Both the position numbers and the translations under genes were made by a program. The notes below the pieces were generated by a model, which did not search any database, was not told where the DNA came from, and saw only the letters and a list, made by a program, of their open reading frames with translations. Shown here piece after piece: positions 1-9,780 of a DNA stretch of 32,786 nt. The stretch is from contig CAYNMK010000002.1 in NCBI GenBank assembly GCA_964398445.1, forward strand, positions 1-32,786, in the 5' to 3' direction. This stretch comes from an uncultured Candidatus Saccharibacteria bacterium (lineage in GTDB: Bacteria; Patescibacteriota; Minisyncoccia; UBA6257; UBA9933). The first letter of the stretch is position 1, and the number at the start of each line of letters is the position of its first letter.

Positions 1-56
1 CCTGCTGAGATATTTTATCAGGAGACGGGCGTTGCACTATTTCCTTGAATGTAGCC

Positions 57-84
57 TTGACAACTTTTTTACTATATATATACT
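57..84 (+). promoter_or_regulatory. Candidate sigma70-type promoter upstream of the 23S-5S operon
   Basis: TTGACA at 57-62, 16-nt spacer, TATACT at 79-84. It lies ~300 nt upstream of the mature 23S 5' end. A weak hairpin plus T-run at ~160-195 lies between them, so the assignment is uncertain. Confidence 0.3.
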
Positions 85-226
85 GTAATAATATAGATAT
101 GAAAATGTTAATGAAAATATCCGGCGGTTGAAAAATGGCGAATTTTTTATATTCGTAATTTCAATCCGTTGAATAGCGGATTTTTTATTTTCTGCAAAGA
201 TAGTTGTTTGACAAATTAATAAGTAA

Positions 227-251
227 CAATTATTCGAGTCCTCGAACCCTG
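227..251 (+). promoter_or_regulatory. 5' strand of a long-range pre-23S processing stem (RNase III-type)
   Basis: caattattcgagtcctcgaaccctg is complementary to 5959-5983 (cagggttcgaagagtcgaataattg) at 23 of 25 positions. The two strands bracket the whole 23S gene. Confidence 0.6.
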
Positions 252-255
252 AGTC

Positions 256-378
256 GTGTCTCATTATTGTTCGGCACTTTTTTGTCAATGATTAATGATC
301 AATGACTAAATAATAAGATTTTTAGGTTGCATAAGTCGTAAATTGTAACTTAAAGTGGTGATCGGTAGTGAGACACGA
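256..378 (+). repeat. Long imperfect hairpin element in the 23S leader (gtgtctc...gagacac base)
   Basis: cgtgtctca (257-265) pairs with tgagacacg (370-378). The arms are AT-rich with 7-nt periodic units (caatgat/taatgat/caatgac) and many G-U positions. The base motif is the same as in the inserts at 544-605 and 1393-1545. Confidence 0.5.
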
Positions 379-543
379 AACAGGTTGAGACAAATTTTTA
401 ATTAAGGGCGTATGGTGGATGCCTTGATATCAAATGGCGATGAAGGACGTGGCGTGGCTGCGATAAGCCTCGGTGAGGTGCTTAGCAACCTATGACCCGG
501 GGATTTCCGAATGGGGAAACCCTCTGCGGTAAACCCGCAGAAC

Positions 544-605
544 CGTGTCTCGCTTTTGTTCGACACTTATAAATTGGAATAAGTGGTAAATAAAAGTGAG
601 ACACG
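544..605 (+). repeat. 23S hairpin insertion/expansion 1 (helix 9-10 region)
   Basis: cgtgtctc...gagacacg stem. It contains the recurring motif gtgtctcgcttttgttcgacac and is longer than the corresponding E. coli segment. Confidence 0.45.
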
Positions 606-658
606 GAGCGTACCCGCTGAAGTGAAACATCTCAGTAAGCGGAGGAAAAGAAAAAAAT

Positions 659-838
659 CGTTTGCGCCTCACTGCGTTTGGCACAGACTAAAACCAAAGG
701 TAAAAAATAAAAAATTAAAAATAAAAATGTAAAAACGGAAAAATGTTTTTAGGTTTTAGGAATTTTTGATTTGTATTTTTTATTTTTAATATTTAATTTT
801 TGGTTTGAGTGAGTGTTGAGCATAGTGAGGCGCAAGCG
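659..838 (+). repeat. 23S hairpin insertion 2 (~E. coli nt 215 region)
   Basis: It interrupts ...gaggaaaagaaa...|...attccccaagtagcggcgagcgaa. gcgcctcact (664-673) pairs with agtgaggcgc (824-833). The ~80-nt AT-rich arms pair with many G-U positions. Confidence 0.7.
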
Positions 839-877
839 AATATTCCCCAAGTAGCGGCGAGCGAAAAGGGAGGAGCC

Positions 878-1047
878 CAAACCTAACCATACCTCACTGC
901 GTTCGGTATGGAATTATTTAATTTTTAATTTTTAATTTTTATTAAATTTTTAATGTTTTAATTTTCAAACATTAAGTCATTCATTAGAAATTAGAAATTG
1001 AAAATTAGAAATTCTACCCGAGCATAGCGAGGTGTGGTTGGGGGTTG
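878..1047 (+). repeat. 23S hairpin insertion 3 (~E. coli nt 270 region)
   Basis: Basal pairing is aacctaaccatacctc / gaggtgtggttgggggtt. The 5' arm has (aattttt)3 and the 3' arm has (attagaa)n, paired through U-G wobbles. Confidence 0.7.
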
Positions 1048-1392
1048 TAAGAATTTCACGCTACTTTACTAATCGCAAAGTTCCTGTTTATGGGATTTTG
1101 TGATTTGTGAAGCAAGAAAAGGTTACAAAATTATTTGTTAGCTGAATTTATTGGAAAGTAAAACCAAAGAAGGTGATAGTCCTGTAAGCGAAAACGAATG
1201 ATCCTTTTAGTGAAGTATCTTGAGTAACTCGATGACAGAATACTTCGAGTGAATCATCCGGCACTATCCGGAAAGGCTAAATACATTTGATAATCGATAG
1301 CGAATAGTACCGTGAGGGAAAGGTGAAAAGTAGGCCGGCAAGGCCGTTGAAATAGAACCTGAAACCATATGCTTACAAGGAGGCGGAGCTTT

Positions 1393-1545
1393 GTGTCTCA
1401 CTTTTGTTCGACACCGAATTTTTAATTTTTAATTTTGAATTTCTAATGAATAATTAAATGATTTAATGTTTAAAGCATTAAGTTGTTAGAAATTAGAAAT
1501 TAAAGAATTAGAAATTGGAACGAGTGGCGAGCGAAAGCGAGACAC
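1393..1545 (+). repeat. 23S hairpin insertion 4 (helix 25 region, a classical IVS site)
   Basis: It sits between ...caaggaggcggagc and agtgacgctgtgcc. The base is gtgtctcacttttgttcgacac ... gcgagacac, with an AT-rich periodic distal hairpin. Confidence 0.7.
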
Positions 1546-1654
1546 GGAGTGACGCTGTGCCTATTGAAGAATGAGCCAACGAGTTTATGTATATCGCTAG
1601 TTTAAATCTTATGAGATGAAAGCACAGGGAAACCGAGTGTTAAAAGCGCGTATA

Positions 1655-1814
1655 CCGTTGCTGTCGCAACGGAAATCCTAAATCCAAAATCCTAAACCCT
1701 AAACAAATCCAAAATTTTAAATCCAAAATTCAAAACAATTTTTTGGATTTAATGTTTAAATTTTATTTAGGATTTAGAGTTTAGAATTTAGAGTTTCCGC
1801 TGCGGTAGCAGCGG
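1655..1814 (+). repeat. 23S hairpin insertion 5 (domain II, ~nt 640 region)
   Basis: Mini-hairpin ccgttgctgtcgcaacgg (1655-1672), then a long hairpin of cctaaat/ccaaaat 7-mers paired with ggattta/gagttta units, then mini-hairpin ccgctgcggtagcagcgg (1797-1814). Confidence 0.7.
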
Positions 1815-2331
1815 TCGGCGGTATGTGTAAGACCCGAAGCCAAGCGAGCTTGCCCTGGCCAGGATGAAGTTTGATGAAAATCGAATGGAGGTCCGCACCA
1901 GTAGGTCGTTCAAAACCTTTGGATGAGCTGGGGCAAGAAGTGAAAAGCTAATCGAGCTTGGTAATAGCTGGTTCTCTCCGAAATAGCTTTAGGGCTAGCG
2001 TCCGGGGAAAATTTATGTGGGGTAGAGCTACTAGTTAAGAAGTAAGGGTGAAAGCCTGATCTTTTTAGTCAAACTCCGAATACGCATAAAATTAGCCTGG
2101 GCAGTTAGACCATGGGGGCTAAGCTCCATAGGTCAAAAGGGAAACAGCCCAAATCGTCGTCTAAGGTCCCTAAATATTTGCTAAGTGTTAATAAGGCAGT
2201 GATTTGCCACAGACAGATAGAAGGTTGGCTTAGAGGCAGCCATCCTTTAAAGAGTGCGTAACAGCTCACTATTCGATGGCGAATTGCGCCAAAAATTTAC
2301 GGGACTAAGCAAATTACCGAAGACACGAATA

Positions 2332-2473
2332 CCAGTGCTTCGCACTGGAATTTTCAATGATCAATTTTTAATTTTCATTGAATTTTTAATCTTTTAATTT
2401 TCAAACATTAATTTATTAGAAATTCATTAGAAATTAGAAATTGAAAATTAGAAATTCCAATGCGCAGCATTGG
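2332..2473 (+). repeat. 23S hairpin insertion 6 (helix 45 region, a classical IVS site)
   Basis: ccagtgcttcgcactgg (2332-2348), then an AT-rich heptad hairpin, then ccaatgcgcagcattgg (2457-2473). It sits between ...ccgaagacacgaata and tgtggtaggagagc. Confidence 0.75.
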
Positions 2474-3016
2474 TGTGGTAGGAGAGCATTTCAATCGCGT
2501 TGAAGCTTTAGCCGTGAGGCAGAGTGGAGCGTTTGGAAGAGAAAATGTTGGTATGAGTAACCGCAAAGCCGATGAGAATTCGGCTCCCCGAAAATCCAAG
2601 GTTTCCTCCGCAACGAAAATCGACGGAGGGTTAGGCGATCCTAAGGCGATGACGAAAGTCGGAGTCGATGGACAGCTGGTTAATATTCCAGCCCGCTGAA
2701 CATAGTTCGATGGAGAGACGGAGAAAAAAAGATCAAGCATCTTAATGGTTTGGTGTTATTGGTTATTAGAATTGTTGTTTTGGCAAATCCGGGCAACTAC
2801 CTTTAATGGTAAAATTCGCAAATTGATAAAACTTCGATTCGTCGGAGAATTTGATTGAAGAGTCTTCTGAAAAAAACTTCTAAGATTTCCTATGTTTGGC
2901 TTCGTACCGTAAACCGACACAGGTGGATGAGGCGAGGAGCCTCAGGGGAACGAGTGAGTCCTCGTTAAGGAACTCGGCAAAAAAGCGGCCGTAACTTCGG
3001 GATAAGGCCTGCCTGC

Positions 3017-3197
3017 CCAGTGTTTCGCACTGGAGTTTTCAATGAATAATTGTTAATTTTTATTAAATTTTTAATGTTTTAATTTTTGAACATTAATTCA
3101 TTAGAAATTGCTTGCCCCGTAGTGAATGCGAAGCATTCTATTGCTGGGGATTAGAAATTAATAATTAGAAATTAGAAATTCCACTGCGGAGCAGTGG
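3017..3197 (+). repeat. 23S hairpin insertion 7 (helix 63 region) with a nested branch
   Basis: ccagtgtttcgcactgg (3017-3033), then a long hairpin, then ccactgcggagcagtgg (3181-3197). An extra branch at 3110-3150 contains cccc...gggg and the mini-hairpin gaatgcgaagcattc. Confidence 0.75.
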
Positions 3198-3319
3198 TGT
3201 GGGCCGCAGCGAAAGTATCCCTGGCGACTGTTTATCAAAAACACAGCTCCCTGCGAACTCGTAAGAGGATGTATAGGGGGTGACGCCTGACCGATGCGAG
3301 AAGGTTAACGGTGGCAGTC

Positions 3320-3450
3320 TTGTGTTTCGCACTTAGTTTATGAGTTTCGCTTCATTACAGTTTAATGAGTTATTGAGTTTTAATTGATTAAACTACAGTG
3401 AGCGGAACGAATGTAACTCATTAATTCATAAACTGGGTGCGGAGCGCGAG
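3320..3450 (+). repeat. 23S hairpin insertion 8 (domain IV, ~nt 1860 region)
   Basis: It is flanked by ggcagtc / gactgcc pairing. gtgtttcgcac on the left and gtgcggagcgc on the right enclose a hairpin of gagtttN 7-mers. Confidence 0.65.
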
Positions 3451-3525
3451 GCCGACTGCCCGAAGCCCTCGTCAATGTCAGCAGTAACTATAACTGTTCT
3501 AAGGTAGCGCATTTCCTTTCCGGGT

Positions 3526-3907
3526 AAGGTGGAACTTGCCCCTTTTCGCCGCGAGGTGAATCGAAGAAGTCAGCTTATAACGGTGAAGCCCTAATTCTTT
3601 AATGATGTATTTTGTGATATTATATAAAGAATGGGTAATACCGTGGGAAGCCTAACTAGTGCTGTCGCACAAGTGACTAACGATAAATGACCTATGACCA
3701 ACGACAAAAAAGTTGTTAGTCGTTAGTTGTGAGTCGTAAGTTGCTCGCGCGGAGCAGTGGTAATGGCCCTGTAACGACTTAGGCGAAAGCCTTAATAATT
3801 CTTTTTTAAGAATTATTATACGCTGACCACTTAACTTAAATTATAAATAATTTAAGTTAAGTTGAAGATATAGTCTGATACTTATCGTGAGATAAGCAAA
3901 CATATAG
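3526..3907 (+). mobile_element. Group I intron 1 in 23S (after U1951, E. coli numbering; no ORF)
   Basis: The exon junction restores ccgggt|aagttccgg. The 5' exon ends in T and the intron ends in G. The internal guide aactt-gccc (3533-3541) pairs with the 3' exon aagtt (P10) and the 5' exon gggt (P1, with a U-G pair). Core motifs present: cttataacggtgaag, taataccgtgggaag, ccctgtaacgactt, aagatatagtct. Confidence 0.85.
3656..3760 (+). repeat. Hairpin element inserted in a peripheral loop of intron 1
   Basis: Mini-hairpin gtgctgtcgcac, then a hairpin of gactaac/gataaat/gacctat/gaccaac 7-mers, then tgctcgcgcggagca...gtgg. It occupies the same intron position as the HEG ORF in intron 3. Confidence 0.6.
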
Positions 3908-4404
3908 AAGTTCCGGAGCGCACGAAAGGCGTAACGACTGGGGAACTGTCTCAACGAGGAGCTCGGTGAAAATGCAATTCCCGTGAAGATGCGGGATACC
4001 TACAGCAAGACGAAAAGACCCCGGGAGCTTTACTGTAGCTTGATATTGATTTTAAAATTTTGATGCGTAGCGTAGTGGGGAGGCTTTGAAACTTTACTTT
4101 CGGGTAAAGTGGAGCCGCCAATGAAACACCCATCGTTAAAATTTTAAAATCTAATCTAAATGGCAAAAACATTTGGAGACAGTGTTTGGTGGGCAGTTTA
4201 TGTGGGGCACATTCCTCCTAAAAAGTAATGGAGGAGTTTATTAAGGTTGGCTTGGCCCGGATGGAAATCGGGCTGGACGTGTAAAGGCAAAAGCCAGCTT
4301 AACGGCAAGGCCGACAAGCCGCGCCGATGCGAAAGCAGAACTTAGTGACCCGACCATTCTTTATAGAAAGGTGGGAGACAACGGATAAAAGCTACCCCGG
4401 GGAT

Positions 4405-4686
4405 AGAACCTGAAATAAGGTTTTGTTGTCCTCCTCATAGTAATGTGAGGTAAAAAATGCGACTTATAACGGTGAAATCAAAATTGGTCTTCCCTGGAAA
4501 CAGGTTTTAGGATTTTGGTAATACCGTGGGAAGTCTAACCACTGCGGAGCAGTGGCAATGACCCTGTAACGACTTAATCTAAGAAGATTGGATGGTAGTT
4601 TTTAAACTATCATAATACGTCGCGCCCATTAAAGTTTTTTTAATGGGAAAAGATATAGTCTAATCATTCGCAAAGCGAATAGATTG
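4405..4686 (+). mobile_element. Group I intron 2 in 23S (after U2449; no ORF)
   Basis: The junction restores ggggat|aacaggctg. The guide gtt-gtcctc (4425-4433) pairs with the 3' exon aac and the 5' exon ggggat, with a U-G pair at the splice site. It has the same core motifs as intron 1 and ends ...agattg. Confidence 0.88.
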
Positions 4687-4821
4687 AACAGGCTGGTTGC
4701 GTCTAAGAGTTCATATCGACGACGCAGTTCGGCACCTCGATGTCGGCTCATCACATCCCGGGGGTGGAGAAGCTCCCAAGGGTTTGGCTGTTCGCCAATT
4801 AAAGTGATACGCGAGCTGGGT

Positions 4822-5648
4822 GAATTAATCCAAAAATGAGCCCAGCAAAAATTGACTCATAACGGTGGAGTCCGAATGCTTAAAGTGTTAAAATTTAAGT
4901 AATGGATAATACCGTGGGAAGATTACAATCTTTATTTTCACCACATCAATTTGATGTGATTATTGGATCATTATTAGGAGATGCACGACTTGAATGTCGT
5001 TCAATTGGATTAAGACATTCAATTACCGCACGATTCAGAGTGCATCATGGAGAAAAACAAAAAGATTATGTTTTTTGGAAATACGAAATTCTTAGAAGTT
5101 TAGTAATAAAAGAGCCTCAGAAAAGTATATGGAATAATCCAAAAAGAAATATTCAAGAAATTTCTTGGTATTTTCATACGAAAAGCTTAAAAGAATTTGG
5201 TGTCATTTATAGATATTTCTATAAAGACAACATTAAGATTCTTCCAAAAAATTTATTTAATCTACTTACTCCTAGAATGATGGCAATATGGTTTATGGAT
5301 GATGGCTCAAATACCAAAGAAAGCTTTACGTTAAATACGCATAGTTTTTCAGAAAAAGAGCAATTACATATAGTTGATTTTCTAAAAAACAATTATAAAA
5401 TTATAGCTACTTTAGTAAAAGATAGAAATAAATTTAAAATCAGAATTAATAAAAGTAGCTATCAGAAATTCGTAAACATTATTAAGCTATTTATTATTCC
5501 TTCTATGATTTATAAGATTGATAATCCCCGTAACGACTTGTCATATAATATGACAGAGTTGCCTTATTAAAGGCAGTTAACACGTCAGCTCCGACTTAAC
5601 ATCGGAGAAGGTATAGTCTAATGCTATTAGTAATAATAGAGAATATTG
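4822..5648 (+). mobile_element. Group I intron 3 in 23S (after U2584/2585, in the peptidyl-transferase loop), carrying a LAGLIDADG gene
   Basis: The junction restores gctgggt|tcagaccgtcgtgagacagg. The guide tga-gcccagc (4837-4846) pairs with the 3' exon tca and the 5' exon gctgggt (7 bp, U-G pair at the splice site). Core motifs present: ctcataacggtggag, taataccgtgggaag, ccccgtaacgactt, aaggtatagtct. Confidence 0.88.
4902..5570 (+). CDS. Double-motif LAGLIDADG homing endonuclease (intron-encoded)
   Basis: 222-aa ORF inside intron 3. It has two LAGLIDADG-type motifs, IIGSLLGDARLE and IWFMDDGS. Confidence 0.85.
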   Translation: MDNTVGRLQSLFSPHQFDVIIGSLLGDARLECRSIGLRHSITARFRVHHGEKQKDYVFWKYEILRSLVIKEPQKSIWNNPKRNIQEISWYFHTKSLKEFGVIYRYFYKDNIKILPKNLFNLLTPRMMAIWFMDDGSNTKESFTLNTHSFSEKEQLHIVDFLKNNYKIIATLVKDRNKFKIRINKSSYQKFVNIIKLFIIPSMIYKIDNPRNDLSYNMTELPY

Positions 5649-5773
5649 TCAGACCGTCGTGAGACAGGTTGGTCTCTATCTGCTGTAGGCGTTGACGCTT
5701 GAGGGAAGTTGACCCTTGTACGAGAGGATCGGGTTGAACGAACCTCTGGTCTACCGGCTTTACCACCAGGTGA

Positions 5774-5804
<31 letters not shown>

Positions 5805-5958
5805 GAGCTGAAAGCATCTAAGCACGAAGCCCCTCCCAAGATTAGGCGTCTTAGATTGGTCGAAGACTACGACCTTGATAGGCTTTAGGTGTAAGCATAG
5901 TAATATGTTTAGCCGAGAAGTACTAATAAATCATATTTTTTTGTTTCTATCTAAATTT

Positions 5959-5983
5959 CAGGGTTCGAAGAGTCGAATAATTG
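5959..5983 (+). promoter_or_regulatory. 3' strand of the long-range pre-23S processing stem
   Basis: Complementary to 227-251 at 23 of 25 positions. It is followed by a trailer hairpin (~5984-6047) with atgac/atgat 7-mer units. Confidence 0.6.
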
Positions 5984-6106
5984 TCGTATTGTGCTTCATT
6001 GTCGTTTGGCGTTTTTTAATCAACGACTAATGATTAATGACTTATGCAATATAGAAATATTATTGTTATTATGTTGTAGGTTATTAATTATTATTGTTAA
6101 TAGCGG

Positions 6107-6221
6107 TTTCTTGGTGATTTAATTTATCGTGCTCTACCCGATTCCATTCCGAACTCGGAAGTAAAAGCGATAAATACCGATGATACTTAGTTTTCTAGGG
6201 AAAGTAGGTTTCGCCAAGATT
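6107..6221 (+). rRNA. rrf: 5S rRNA
   Basis: ttcttggtg...cgccaaga forms the terminal helix. Conserved ccgaactcggaagtaaaa and ggaaagtagg segments are present. It lies ~155 nt downstream of 23S. Confidence 0.85.
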
Positions 6222-6260
6222 CCTCTGTTAATAATTTGGTGTAAAGAGTATAATCATAAA

Positions 6261-7313
6261 ATGACTCGACAAATAATAAAGCAGATTTTTTATGGTACTG
6301 GATTTTTTTTAATATTTTTTTTAATTATTTCCGGTAGTTATTTTATTTGGCTTAAGCCATCTCCTAGTTGTTTTGATGGTCGTCAAAATCAAGGCGAAAT
6401 TGGAATTGATTGCGGTGGTCCTTGTATTGATTGCGAAATAAAAATTTTAAATCCTTTAGAAGTATCTTGGTTAAGACATTTTCCTGTTGACGACAGAGTA
6501 GTTATTGCGGCTGAAATAAGAAATCCTAATTTTAATTACGGAGCTGATAATTTTTCTTACATTTTTACTATTTATAATTATTTTGGAGAAAAAATTTATA
6601 CTTTAAATAAGAATTCTTTTATTTATGCTGGTGAAATAAAATATCTTATAGAGGCAAACATTGATATTAATCCGAAAAATATTAACAAAATTAAACTTTC
6701 TTTTTCCAACATTAATTGGAAATCTAAAGAAGAATTCCCTAGGCCCGAAATTCAAATTCGAGAGATTAGAACTGAGTCAGCCCAACCTATTCGTGTTAGT
6801 GGATTAGTAATCAATAATAATGCCTTTGCATTATCAGATGTAAACGTTGTTAGTTTTTTGTTTAATAAAAATGGTTTTCGGATAGGCGCTTCTATAGCTA
6901 AATTAGGCAGCCTTCCAGCTTTTGAAGAAAAATTTTTCCGAATTGTTTTCCCTGGTCATATTTCTTTAATTGCAGAAGAAATTATAGAAAAGTTGGCTCC
7001 AATTAATTATAAATTTACTCGTAATTTAACTATTGGCTCAAGGGGTGAAGATGTAAAATCTTTGCAGCAGTTTCTTAAAGAGCAAGGATTTTTTAATCGT
7101 GAAATTACAAATTATTTTGGTTTAATAACTAAAAATTCTTTAATTCAATATCAGAAAAAGGCAGGCATATCGCCAGCATCTGGTTATTTTGGCCCCATAA
7201 CTCGTAATCATATTAACTCTTTAATAACGCCAGTTCCTCTGTATTTGCCTAAGTTTAATATTAATGAGGCTGATCCAGGCTTAACTAGAGTTTATGTTGA
7301 TGTTATTCGTTGA
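6261..7313 (+). CDS. Membrane-anchored protein with a C-terminal peptidoglycan-binding domain
   Basis: The ORF-track start at 6180 overlaps the 5S gene, so the start is moved to the ATG at 6261 (MTRQIIK). One N-terminal TM segment, a GIDCGGPCIDCE Cys motif, and a C-terminal GEDVKSLQQFLKEQGFF...GYFGPITRNHI segment typical of PG_binding_1. Confidence 0.6.
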   Translation: MTRQIIKQIFYGTGFFLIFFLIISGSYFIWLKPSPSCFDGRQNQGEIGIDCGGPCIDCEIKILNPLEVSWLRHFPVDDRVVIAAEIRNPNFNYGADNFSYIFTIYNYFGEKIYTLNKNSFIYAGEIKYLIEANIDINPKNINKIKLSFSNINWKSKEEFPRPEIQIREIRTESAQPIRVSGLVINNNAFALSDVNVVSFLFNKNGFRIGASIAKLGSLPAFEEKFFRIVFPGHISLIAEEIIEKLAPINYKFTRNLTIGSRGEDVKSLQQFLKEQGFFNREITNYFGLITKNSLIQYQKKAGISPASGYFGPITRNHINSLITPVPLYLPKFNINEADPGLTRVYVDVIR

Positions 7314-8103: not shown

Positions 8104-9780
8104 ATGTTTACTAGAATATTTCAAATTCTCAAATCTTTTTCTCGTTATGAGCGATATGTTTTTGTGGCGTCTTTTTTAGTCTTTGTAACTTCTTTTATTT
8201 TTATTTTAATTAATTTTATAAGTCAAAATACTTTTCTTGCGCCAATTAGTGGGGGCGAATATAGGGAGGGTTTAATTGGTCAGCCAATTTTTATTAATCC
8301 TGTTTTAGTTGGCAGCAACGACTCTGATCGTGATTTAACAGAATTAATTTTTAGCAGCATTCTTGAATTAAACGAAAGTTATAGAATAGATGACTATGGT
8401 ATGACTTGGAATGTCAGGCTTAAGGAAAATATTTTTTGGCATGATGGAAATACTATTACTAGCGATGATGTGATTTTTACTGTTAAAACTATTCAAGATC
8501 CTGACGCTCGTTCTCCTCTTTTTTCCAATTGGTATGGCGTAACCGCGGAGCGAATTAGTGAGCGCGAGGTAAAATTTATTTTATTGGCTCCTTATGCGTT
8601 TTTTAAGGGCACCCTTGAAGAATTAAGATTAATTCCTGAACATCTTTTTGGTGATATACCAGCTGCTAACATCAGACTTTCTAATTATAATTTTGAACCA
8701 ATTGGCAGCGGACCTTTTAAGTTTGATTCTTTGCAGAAGCGTCGTGATGGCTTTATTACTGAGTATAATCTTATAAGAAATGAAAATTATTTTGGTCAAA
8801 AACCATATTTGAATCGGATAATTTTTAAATTTTATCTTAATGCCAATGAATTAATTAAAGATTTTAATTTAGGGGCAATTGATGGGTTTGGCGGCGTTAG
8901 TCCTAAAAATTTAACTAACATTAAACTTGATTATCAGGAATTTAAACTTGCGATGCCTAGGCATTATGCTATCTTTTTTAATGTTAATGCTCAGCCATTA
9001 TTAAATGATATAAATATCAGGGCGGCTCTAAGTATGGCTGTTGATCGTCGGTTATTGATTCAAGAAATTTTTTTAAATCGCGCTATAGTTGCTTTTGGCC
9101 CATTGAATCCTTTAATAGAAAGTCATGGTTTGAATATTTTTCGAGAAAATTCTTTAGCATTTAAGCCTGAAGAAGCTAATCAAATTTTAGATAATGCAGG
9201 TTGGCGGATTAATTATGAAGGAATTCGTGAAAAAAATTTTAATGATGGCAAAAAAGAAAAAATTTTAAAATTGGAATTTAAATTAACTGTTCCGGAGATA
9301 CCGTTTTTAATTGAAACGGCAAATATTATTCAAGAGAATTGGAAAAAAATTGGCGTTAAATTAGATATAGAAATTTTTCATCCATTTCATATTAATAATG
9401 AAATAATTAAAGCTCGTAAATATGAGATGCTTTTATTTGGTAATATTTTTGGTAAAAGTCCGGATTTTTTCTCTTTTTGGCATTCTTCAGAAAAATTTTA
9501 TCCTGGTCTTAATTTGTCTCTTTATGACAATAAAGAAGCAGACATTTTAATTGAATTAATTAGAGAAGATTTAGAAAAAGAAAGTCGGCAGCGAAATTTA
9601 AATAAACTTCAATCATTGATTGTTAATGACCAGCCAGCGGTTTTTCTTTATTTTCCGTTTTATCTTTATGTTAGCAATGCCCAGCTTGGCGGTTTTAAGG
9701 AAGAATTTATTTTTTTCCCAAGTGAACGTTTTGAAAATATTGAAAATTGGTATTTAGAAACGGAAAGAAGATTTAAATAA
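8104..9780 (+). CDS. ABC transporter substrate-binding protein, family 5 (peptide/nickel, OppA/DppA-like)
   Basis: 558 aa with an N-terminal TM anchor and SBP_bac_5-like sequence (WHDGNTITSDDVIFT, GSGPFKF). No permease or ATPase genes are adjacent. Confidence 0.7.
   Translation: MFTRIFQILKSFSRYERYVFVASFLVFVTSFIFILINFISQNTFLAPISGGEYREGLIGQPIFINPVLVGSNDSDRDLTELIFSSILELNESYRIDDYGMTWNVRLKENIFWHDGNTITSDDVIFTVKTIQDPDARSPLFSNWYGVTAERISEREVKFILLAPYAFFKGTLEELRLIPEHLFGDIPAANIRLSNYNFEPIGSGPFKFDSLQKRRDGFITEYNLIRNENYFGQKPYLNRIIFKFYLNANELIKDFNLGAIDGFGGVSPKNLTNIKLDYQEFKLAMPRHYAIFFNVNAQPLLNDINIRAALSMAVDRRLLIQEIFLNRAIVAFGPLNPLIESHGLNIFRENSLAFKPEEANQILDNAGWRINYEGIREKNFNDGKKEKILKLEFKLTVPEIPFLIETANIIQENWKKIGVKLDIEIFHPFHINNEIIKARKYEMLLFGNIFGKSPDFFSFWHSSEKFYPGLNLSLYDNKEADILIELIREDLEKESRQRNLNKLQSLIVNDQPAVFLYFPFYLYVSNAQLGGFKEEFIFFPSERFENIENWYLETERRFK

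Follow-up and report, generated by a model that had tools for sequence, protein, structure and literature searches.

Hairpin inserts of a Saccharibacteria 23S rRNA gene are probably copies of a mobile, heptad-armed foldback family of stable RNA genes

The DNA stretch analysed here (hereafter the window) comprises positions 1 to 32,786 of contig CAYNMK010000002.1 from an uncultured Candidatus Saccharibacteria bacterium, and contains a 23S ribosomal RNA (rRNA) gene with a series of hairpin inserts, I1 to I8, and related hairpins in its 5' leader and introns. From comparison with genome and metagenome sequences, we conclude that the inserts are probably copies of a short (~75-230 nt), non-coding foldback family that is widespread in Patescibacteria, also called the Candidate Phyla Radiation (CPR), and that is mobile, similar to the intervening sequences (IVSs) of rRNA genes and selected as sense RNA. 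[quoted passage not shown] These inserts now appear as a coherent family with conserved terminal hairpins, arms of 7-nt periodicity, a strict sense orientation and hosts confined to stable RNA genes. Such a family offers a handle on the origin and spread of rRNA IVSs and expansion-like segments, on how essential RNAs tolerate or process them, and on the factor that mobilises them.

The family sample was defined by an exact search for the 19-nt left end common to I6 and an insert of L035, the closest relative in the genome collection; the end types of I1, I4 and the leader, of I2 and I3, and of I5 and I8 lie outside this metagenome survey. The end sequence of I6 and I7 is CCAGTGCTTCGCACTGGAA, and the left-end search matched 111 metagenome contig stretches, mostly from groundwater. 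In a first pass, a right end could be recognised in 79 elements, of which 60 were distinct; lag 7 gave the best autocorrelation in 60/60 (z 2.3-12.1). With a looser definition of the right end we obtained 75 distinct complete elements of 77-231 nt; a wider search for the family had been suggested in a preliminary description of this DNA. Flank comparison assigned 74 of the 75 to a host: 51 to 23S (a class that takes in leader, spacer and introns), 18 to RNase P RNA and five to 16S, one of the last (in locus L107) lying in a group I intron loop. Rfam confirmed RNase P RNA, 16S and 23S as hosts for a sample of loci, and the 23S sites of the family include those of I1 to I8 in the window. All 74 assignable elements are in sense orientation relative to the host RNA, which points to a constraint or mechanism at the level of the transcript or of a single strand.

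Copies at different sites and in different genes are 85-97% identical in their non-terminal parts. One 168-nt form was found at helix 45 (H45) of 23S rRNA, in an intron loop and in the 23S 3' domain; in a near-identical pair, one copy is located at helix 63 (H63) and the other at about position 230; and a single contig has copies in both 16S and 23S. Additionally, a 732-nt RNase P RNA gene (L091, 2450-3181; Rfam model 367) carries two I6-type copies of 105-106 nt, 93% identical, in two different helices. Ends of 17-19 nt recur unchanged in over 10 different host sites. Because 85-97% identical copies occupy different sites and genes, the behaviour of the element, as read from these sequences, is that of a mobile element and not of independent local growth, and the arms would be inherited within the copied element rather than shaped site by site.

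Gain and loss can also be followed between relatives, which were retrieved via the homing endonuclease of the intron and are Patescibacteria/Parcubacteria-type metagenome-assembled genomes (MAGs). In L035, whose endonuclease is 91% identical and whose 23S exons are ~90% identical to those of the window, the sites of I2, I3, I4, I7 and I8 hold short native helices and the whole base-plus-arms unit is missing; one lineage thus has whole units that the other lacks. The L035 insert at H45 has exactly the base of I6 (ATACCAGTGCTTCGCACTGGAA...TTCCAATGCGCAGCATTGGTGTGG) with arms made of a different heptad, AAATTCC x9.4. Among distant CPR genomes, the 23S gene of L055 contains heptad hairpins with shared base motifs at ~E. 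coli 270, helix 25 (H25) and H45, and that of the Yanofskybacteria locus L051 has a heptad hairpin at helix 68 (H68). The base of the latter, GGCTCACTATTGTTCGCCAC, matches a second conserved end type of the window, the 22-nt motif GTGTCTCRYTWTTGTTCGRCAC at 256-277 in the 5' leader hairpin, 545-566 in I1 and 1393-1414 in I4. Further CPR inserts at these 23S sites form hairpins that lack a 7-nt period.

In the window, Rfam places the bacterial 23S rRNA gene at 392-5935, with a group I intron match inside it, and the 5S gene at 6110-6219. Alignment to the E. coli 23S rRNA locates three introns at E. coli 1951, 2449 and ~2585-2593, the last containing a LAGLIDADG gene (4902-5570), and inserts of 60-190 nt at ~E. 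coli 135-175, 230, 271, 288, 540, 655, 1165, 1710-1770 and 1855-1873, every one of which folds into a single long hairpin. We take E. coli 540, 1165, 1710-1750 and 1855-1873 to be the tips of H25, H45, H63 and H68. Bacterial IVSs classically occur at H25 and H45. Four hydrothermal-vent metagenome DNA runs contain 91-97% of the sampled words of this gene, and the 23S stretch is therefore not a one-off assembly artefact. No copies of the element motifs were found in the remaining 26 kb of the window outside the rRNA operon.

The preliminary description had stated that each insert has a clear 7-nt period and that the heptamer differs between inserts. We compared the arms with shuffled sequences by autocorrelation, and for I2 to I7 and the intron-1 element lag 7 ranked top or second, with lag 7 or 14 on top (z 2.4-4.7). 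The period is thus real in these seven hairpins, while the leader has a short array only, I1 shows no period by autocorrelation, and I8, described earlier as built on 'gagtttN', has no significant period 7 (z ~1) and no row in the output of Tandem Repeats Finder (TRF). Over window positions 1-6300, TRF reported 28 rows, with period 7 in 14, period 14 in 4 and period 21 in 1; over the other 26 kb of the window, period 7 accounted for 5/44 rows. The heptamer units named earlier were recovered by TRF. The statement that they differ between inserts is right only in part: I3, I4, I6 and I7 have AATTTTT/AGAAATT units and an apical segment in common and, on this sequence similarity, are clearly paralogues.

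The individual hairpins, all read on the plus strand, are arranged as follows. The leader hairpin of the 23S precursor (256..375) has a basal motif, GTGTCTCATTATTGTTCGGCAC...GGTAGTGAGACAC, common to I1 and I4, and a short AATGATT x3.3 array at 287-309. I1 (543..606) is a 64-nt hairpin at ~E. coli 135-175 with the basal motif GTGTCTCGCTTTTGTTCGACAC, as in the leader. I2 (658..839) is a hairpin of 179-182 nt after ~E. coli 230, with the base CCTCACTGCGTTTGG...TGAGCATAGTGAGG and TAAAAAA/AATTTTT heptad arms. I3 (888..1036), at ~E. coli 271, sets AATTTTT x7.9 (912-965) opposite ATTAGAA x4.4 (983-1013), and I4 (1388..1550), at H25, has AATTTTT/TTAGAAA arms. At ~E. coli 655, I5 (1660..1808) faces AAATCCT x8.6 (1673-1729) with ATTTAGA x4.6 (1765-1796) and is the sole insert that folds better antisense. 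I6 (2329..2476), at H45, has AATTTTT/ATTAGAA arms; I7 (3013..3202) is located at H63, and I8 (3317..3452), with the ends GTGTTTCGCAC...GTGCGGAGCGC, at H68. None of the window inserts contains an ORF of the PF05635 (S23p / 23S_rRNA_IVP) family.

Two further hairpins reside in the introns. The intron-1 element (3655..3758) is a heptad hairpin in a peripheral loop of group I intron 1 (3526-3907), with AGTCGTT x4.4 on its 3' arm (3711-3741), and in the metagenome locus L121 a complete I6-type element occupies an intron loop matching that of intron 1. The equivalent loop of group I intron 2 holds a solo 17-nt hairpin (4539..4555) identical in sequence to the right end of I7, which may be an element remnant, the scar of an element loss, or simply the loop in its bare form. 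With a 15-mer of the intron core, 31 matches were obtained in viral contigs, 0 of which contained 23S; these contigs were used solely as an unrelated TRF control.

The ends of I6 and I7 have a structure of their own. In I6, the left and right 17-mers are CCAGTGCTTCGCACTGG (2332-2348) and CCAATGCGCAGCATTGG (2457-2473), and in I7 they are CCAGTGTTTCGCACTGG (3017-3033) and CCACTGCGGAGCAGTGG (3181-3197); each is palindromic, and left and right are mutually inverted. Across the family, the right 17-mer varies yet stays self-paired: two of its pairs show at least 4 pair types, 98% of cells are paired, and the pairing score was reached by 0/500 shuffles; the right hairpin thus shows compensatory changes. 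A continuous basal stem between left and right ends was considered for the I6 type and rejected, since among the 23 end types one of its pairs is broken in 9 and another in 13, whereas the local hairpin covaries. Most likely, then, the I6/I7 type consists of a small hairpin, the long heptad hairpin and a second small hairpin atop the host helix, and the single continuous stem of the minimum free energy (MFE) fold is probably wrong at its base. A tRNA-like or recombination signal sequence (RSS)-like reading of the ends was likewise dropped, the loops being 3 nt and nothing else fitting. An ungapped 28-bp hairpin scan proved too strict for bulged rRNA inserts.

Another claim of the preliminary description concerned the two strands: the arms were said to pair through G-U wobbles specific to the sense strand, in a way that argues for selection on the folded sense RNA rather than on a DNA palindrome. 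When both strands were folded, the sense MFE was below the antisense one in 10/11 hairpins, with a gap of 6-34 kcal/mol. We then aligned each 5' arm to the reverse complement of its own 3' arm and counted 86 G-U positions that pair in sense only vs 31 that pair in antisense only (A-C in sense; binomial p = 3.7e-7), next to 469 Watson-Crick positions and 41 transversions. Among the 75 family members, the sense strand is more stable in 50.

From these observations we propose the following picture. An element has a GC-rich basal module, formed in I6 and I7 by the two 17-nt self-pairing mini-hairpins, and above it a long AT-rich stem in which degenerate 7-nt units make up two facing arrays, one per arm; the base would be inherited together with the arms. 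It would spread by copying between the helix tips of stable RNA genes (23S, 16S, RNase P RNA and group I intron loops), in sense only, and would be gained and lost between close relatives. The 7-nt period probably arises and persists through slipped-strand gain and loss of units, and with both arms periodic the stem could re-pair in a shifted register after a unit change. In the transcript the element would fold as an extension of the host helix. The G-U excess in the window probably reflects that changes are tolerated as long as pairing of the sense RNA persists, such changes presumably being kept since the sense transcript must fold for assembly or processing of the host RNA. Finally, the elements are most likely excised by a double-strand-specific RNase such as RNase III, which would give a fragmented 23S rRNA.

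The expected fate in the transcript was examined with a 168-nt family member. In two groundwater metatranscriptomes, the summed contig depth over its interior is ~0-30, vs 1e3-1e5 in the 23S flanks. The same interior is covered by two DNA runs, one DNA contig spans flank, element and flank, and the best 24 holders of its words are all DNA runs. The low depth of the element in RNA as compared with DNA is suggestive of excision. Metatranscriptome contigs aligned to the H68 insert of L051 came only from other organisms with short helix tips, and neither the sequence of the window nor the RNase P RNA locus of L077 was found in any RNA run. At L083 3651/3803, 151 nt are skipped in one metatranscriptome contig, in which the H45 flank runs straight into the terminal mini-hairpin, the final 17 nt of the element; the contig could represent a processed form or the RNA of an organism that has a solo end hairpin.

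Three other explanations of the inserts were weighed against a mobile, sense-selected family. Each insert might have grown independently at its own helix tip by repeat slippage, with no movement, in the manner of a bacterial expansion segment. Heptad slippage is evidently frequent, since period 7 is the commonest tandem period genome-wide, and the H45 insert of L035, with the I6 base and different units, also speaks for such growth. However, copies at different sites and in different genes match over their entire non-terminal part, which largely refutes independent growth; the identical ends at so many host sites speak against it as well, and the empty sites of L035 are without the entire base-plus-arms unit and not just part of the arms. 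We consider this explanation very unlikely. It is also conceivable that the repeats form a DNA-level palindrome system of the kind known from repetitive extragenic palindromic (REP) sequences and REPINs, in which a single-stranded DNA (ssDNA) hairpin or a cruciform is bound by a transposase or other DNA-binding protein and RNA folding is incidental. The palindromic and mutually inverted ends of I6 and I7 do resemble REP doublets, and the heptad hairpins in valS of five CPR genomes (below) pair better antisense to the mRNA. Yet a uniform sense orientation and a location in stable RNA genes only are unexpected for an extragenic DNA repeat, the G-U excess in the window favours the transcript strand, and no gene of the REP-associated tyrosine transposase (RAYT) type turned up, although no search was aimed at RAYT; we regard such a system as scarcely probable.

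A more serious competitor holds that the hairpins are not excised and extend the surface of mature rRNA and RNase P RNA, where a lineage-specific protein might bind them. Elements in RNase P RNA and group I intron loops must suit a working ribozyme, and several sites, H25, H45 and H63 among them, coincide with eukaryotic expansion segments. Against retention, in the two metatranscriptomes the interior of the element is rarer than the flanking rRNA by three to four orders of magnitude, and it is present in DNA runs, which is indirect evidence; the tip of H68 faces the other subunit at the interface and would hardly suit a hairpin of 130 nt; and CPR rRNA insertions are reported to be missing from transcripts through removal (Brown et al. 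2015, cited in PMC11270868). On balance, we find retention improbable.

Several observations nevertheless weigh against a mobile family selected as sense RNA and excised from its hosts. The contrast between RNA and DNA depth is drawn from mixed communities and different studies and is suggestive only. Copies also reside in RNase P RNA and in intron loops, where cutting would fragment a ribozyme and where a retained expansion would fit equally well. Regarding mobility, no transposase or autonomous partner was identified in a search that did not cover the rest of the window's genome, and comparison of the I2, I3, I4, I7 and I8 junctions with the L035 empty sites shows no evident target-site duplication. 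As to selection on the RNA, I5 is reversed, with 5 sense-only vs 8 antisense-only positions and -59 kcal/mol for antisense vs -47 kcal/mol for sense; the G-U excess over the 75 members is modest (296 vs 227 positions); RNAalifold on an alignment of a 10-member subfamily found no compensatory pairs in the arms; and duplex energies of own arms are better than those of foreign arms, with moderate separation only. The earlier argument for selection on the folded sense RNA rather than on a DNA palindrome is accordingly upheld in part, by the strand-asymmetric pairing and the orientation of the family, and weakened by the modest excess, by I5 and by a possible DNA-level role, considering the self-palindromic element ends and the valS hairpins. 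In addition, strong transcription of the gene might bring about strand-biased mutation, and some of the G-U excess could then arise without selection. The modest G-U bias of the family alone cannot account for the strict sense orientation, which argues for an orientation-dependent processing signal or insertion mechanism.

A bolder interpretation, which we hold to be possible but doubtful, is that the elements represent an undescribed class of strand-specific mobile foldbacks, with 7-nt modules set between two terminal mini-hairpins, that home to the hairpin loops of stable RNAs through an ssDNA or RNA intermediate, perhaps with an Avd-like PF05635 partner. Such a class would be the source of bacterial rRNA IVSs and expansion-like segments, and 23S rRNA, possibly also RNase P RNA, would exist as non-covalently joined pieces.

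Among known systems, the 23S IVSs and the heptamer repeats of cyanobacteria come closest. The IVSs occur at helices 25, 45 and 9 in Salmonella, Leptospira, Campylobacter, Coxiella and Rhizobiales, are excised by RNase III without religation and often contain a small PF05635 ORF. Like them, the stem-loops of the window replace helix tips, including I4 at H25 and I6 at H45, and are patchy in close relatives, L035 being without I2, I3, I4, I7 and I8; moreover, a related metagenome locus (L107) has a PF05635 gene bracketed by inverted heptad arrays. Unlike them, at least 8 inserts are found in one gene and many more sites are used, the family extends to 16S, RNase P RNA and intron loops, the arms are 7-nt repeats with conserved terminal mini-hairpins, and excision is here a likely step.

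Cyanobacteria offer a precedent for the arms. [quoted passage not shown] As in our family, a peripheral helix, in a group I intron or in RNase P RNA, is made longer by a hairpin with degenerate 7-nt units in tandem along its two strands, length changes through gain and loss of units and through side hairpins, and the heptamers are also a genome-wide repeat class. In cyanobacterial RNase P RNA, the STRR heptamers are found in helix P12 and are retained there. The CPR elements differ in that they belong to another phylum (STRR hosts are heterocystous cyanobacteria), in their units (AATTTTT, AAATCCT, AAATTCG and others), in the conserved GC-rich terminal modules on their stems, and in the near-identical copies at many sites, by which they behave as discrete mobile elements with rRNA genes as main host. 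The preference for 7 nt, common to both groups, hints at a common mechanistic cause.

With REPINs and REP doublets, miniature inverted-repeat transposable elements (MITEs) and Rickettsia palindromic elements (RPEs), the family shares being short, non-coding, hairpin-forming and multicopy, with inverted-repeat ends. As with REP doublets, each end of I6 and I7 is palindromic by itself, and related heptad hairpins lie in frame in the protein gene valS, which amounts to a resemblance to RPEs and not to membership; no in-frame palindromic copy, the trait of RPEs, was found in the protein genes of the window. In contrast to all of these, the I6-type ends are confined to stable RNA genes in one orientation and are not extragenic, no target-site duplication was seen at the inspected junctions and no partner transposase is known, and internal 7-nt periodicity is not a feature of those families. 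We found no literature on heptad-built rRNA inserts in CPR, full-text queries on heptanucleotide repeats with CPR names and on the end sequences being empty. The family is thus apparently undescribed and related to IVSs, to small palindromic mobile elements and to STRR-type stems, and it does not amount to a categorically new system. In practice, the inserts break covariance-model hits and amplicon primers for rRNA and RNase P RNA and inflate gene lengths in MAGs.

Heptad repeats are not restricted to these inserts. Over 1.2 Mb of CPR-derived loci, TRF found period 7 in 555/1527 rows and period 14 in 135/1527; in genome-derived loci outside rRNA operons period 7 made up 88/343 rows, compared with 5/115 in the control of 276 kb of unrelated viral contigs. 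Facing heptad arrays were found between genes and also inside protein genes. All through related CPR DNA, tandem repeats are thus dominated by period 7, which is hence not specific to rRNA inserts. The earlier impression that the heptad architecture is undescribed for rRNA IVSs agrees with the lack of a CPR paper on it in our search, and needs qualification in view of this wider occurrence and the cyanobacterial precedent.

The clearest case in a protein gene is valS, where five CPR genomes have a 69-nt AATTTTN/AGAAATT hairpin in frame that encodes a conserved ISNSQFLISKQIKNSKLKIKNSS-like peptide loop (L035 14634-14700, L065 11325-11391, L067 11256-11322, and in L068 and L070). In three of the genomes the strand antisense to the mRNA folds at -25 to -33 kcal/mol, vs -4 to -18 kcal/mol for the mRNA strand; the gap is narrower, ~5 kcal/mol, in L068 and L070. 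In L067, facing heptad arrays also occur in the tsaD coding region (9139-9201), with a hairpin predicted in the antisense only (0.0 vs -15.3 kcal/mol).

The L107 gene mentioned above encodes a 119-aa PF05635 protein (23S rRNA IVS protein, Avd-like) at 3190-3690 on the minus strand, outside an rRNA gene, with CAACAAC/CAACTAA arrays upstream and TTGTTGT/TTAGTTG arrays downstream. As a single case, it ties heptad arms to the classical ORF-bearing IVSs. At L179 657-914, an 85-aa ORF for a GIY-YIG nuclease has period-7/14 arrays on both sides.

I7 has a GC-rich side hairpin, GCTTGCCCCGTAGTGAATGCGAAGCATTCTATTGCTGGGG, nested in its 3' arm at ~3110-3149, and such nesting suggests that elements insert into one another. 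Comparable GC-rich palindromes were seen nested in the heptad stems of L070 valS, L074, L110 and L130. In L115, the left end of the family is followed by a 473-aa ORF, and the locus resembles a truncated or chimeric RNase P RNA locus.

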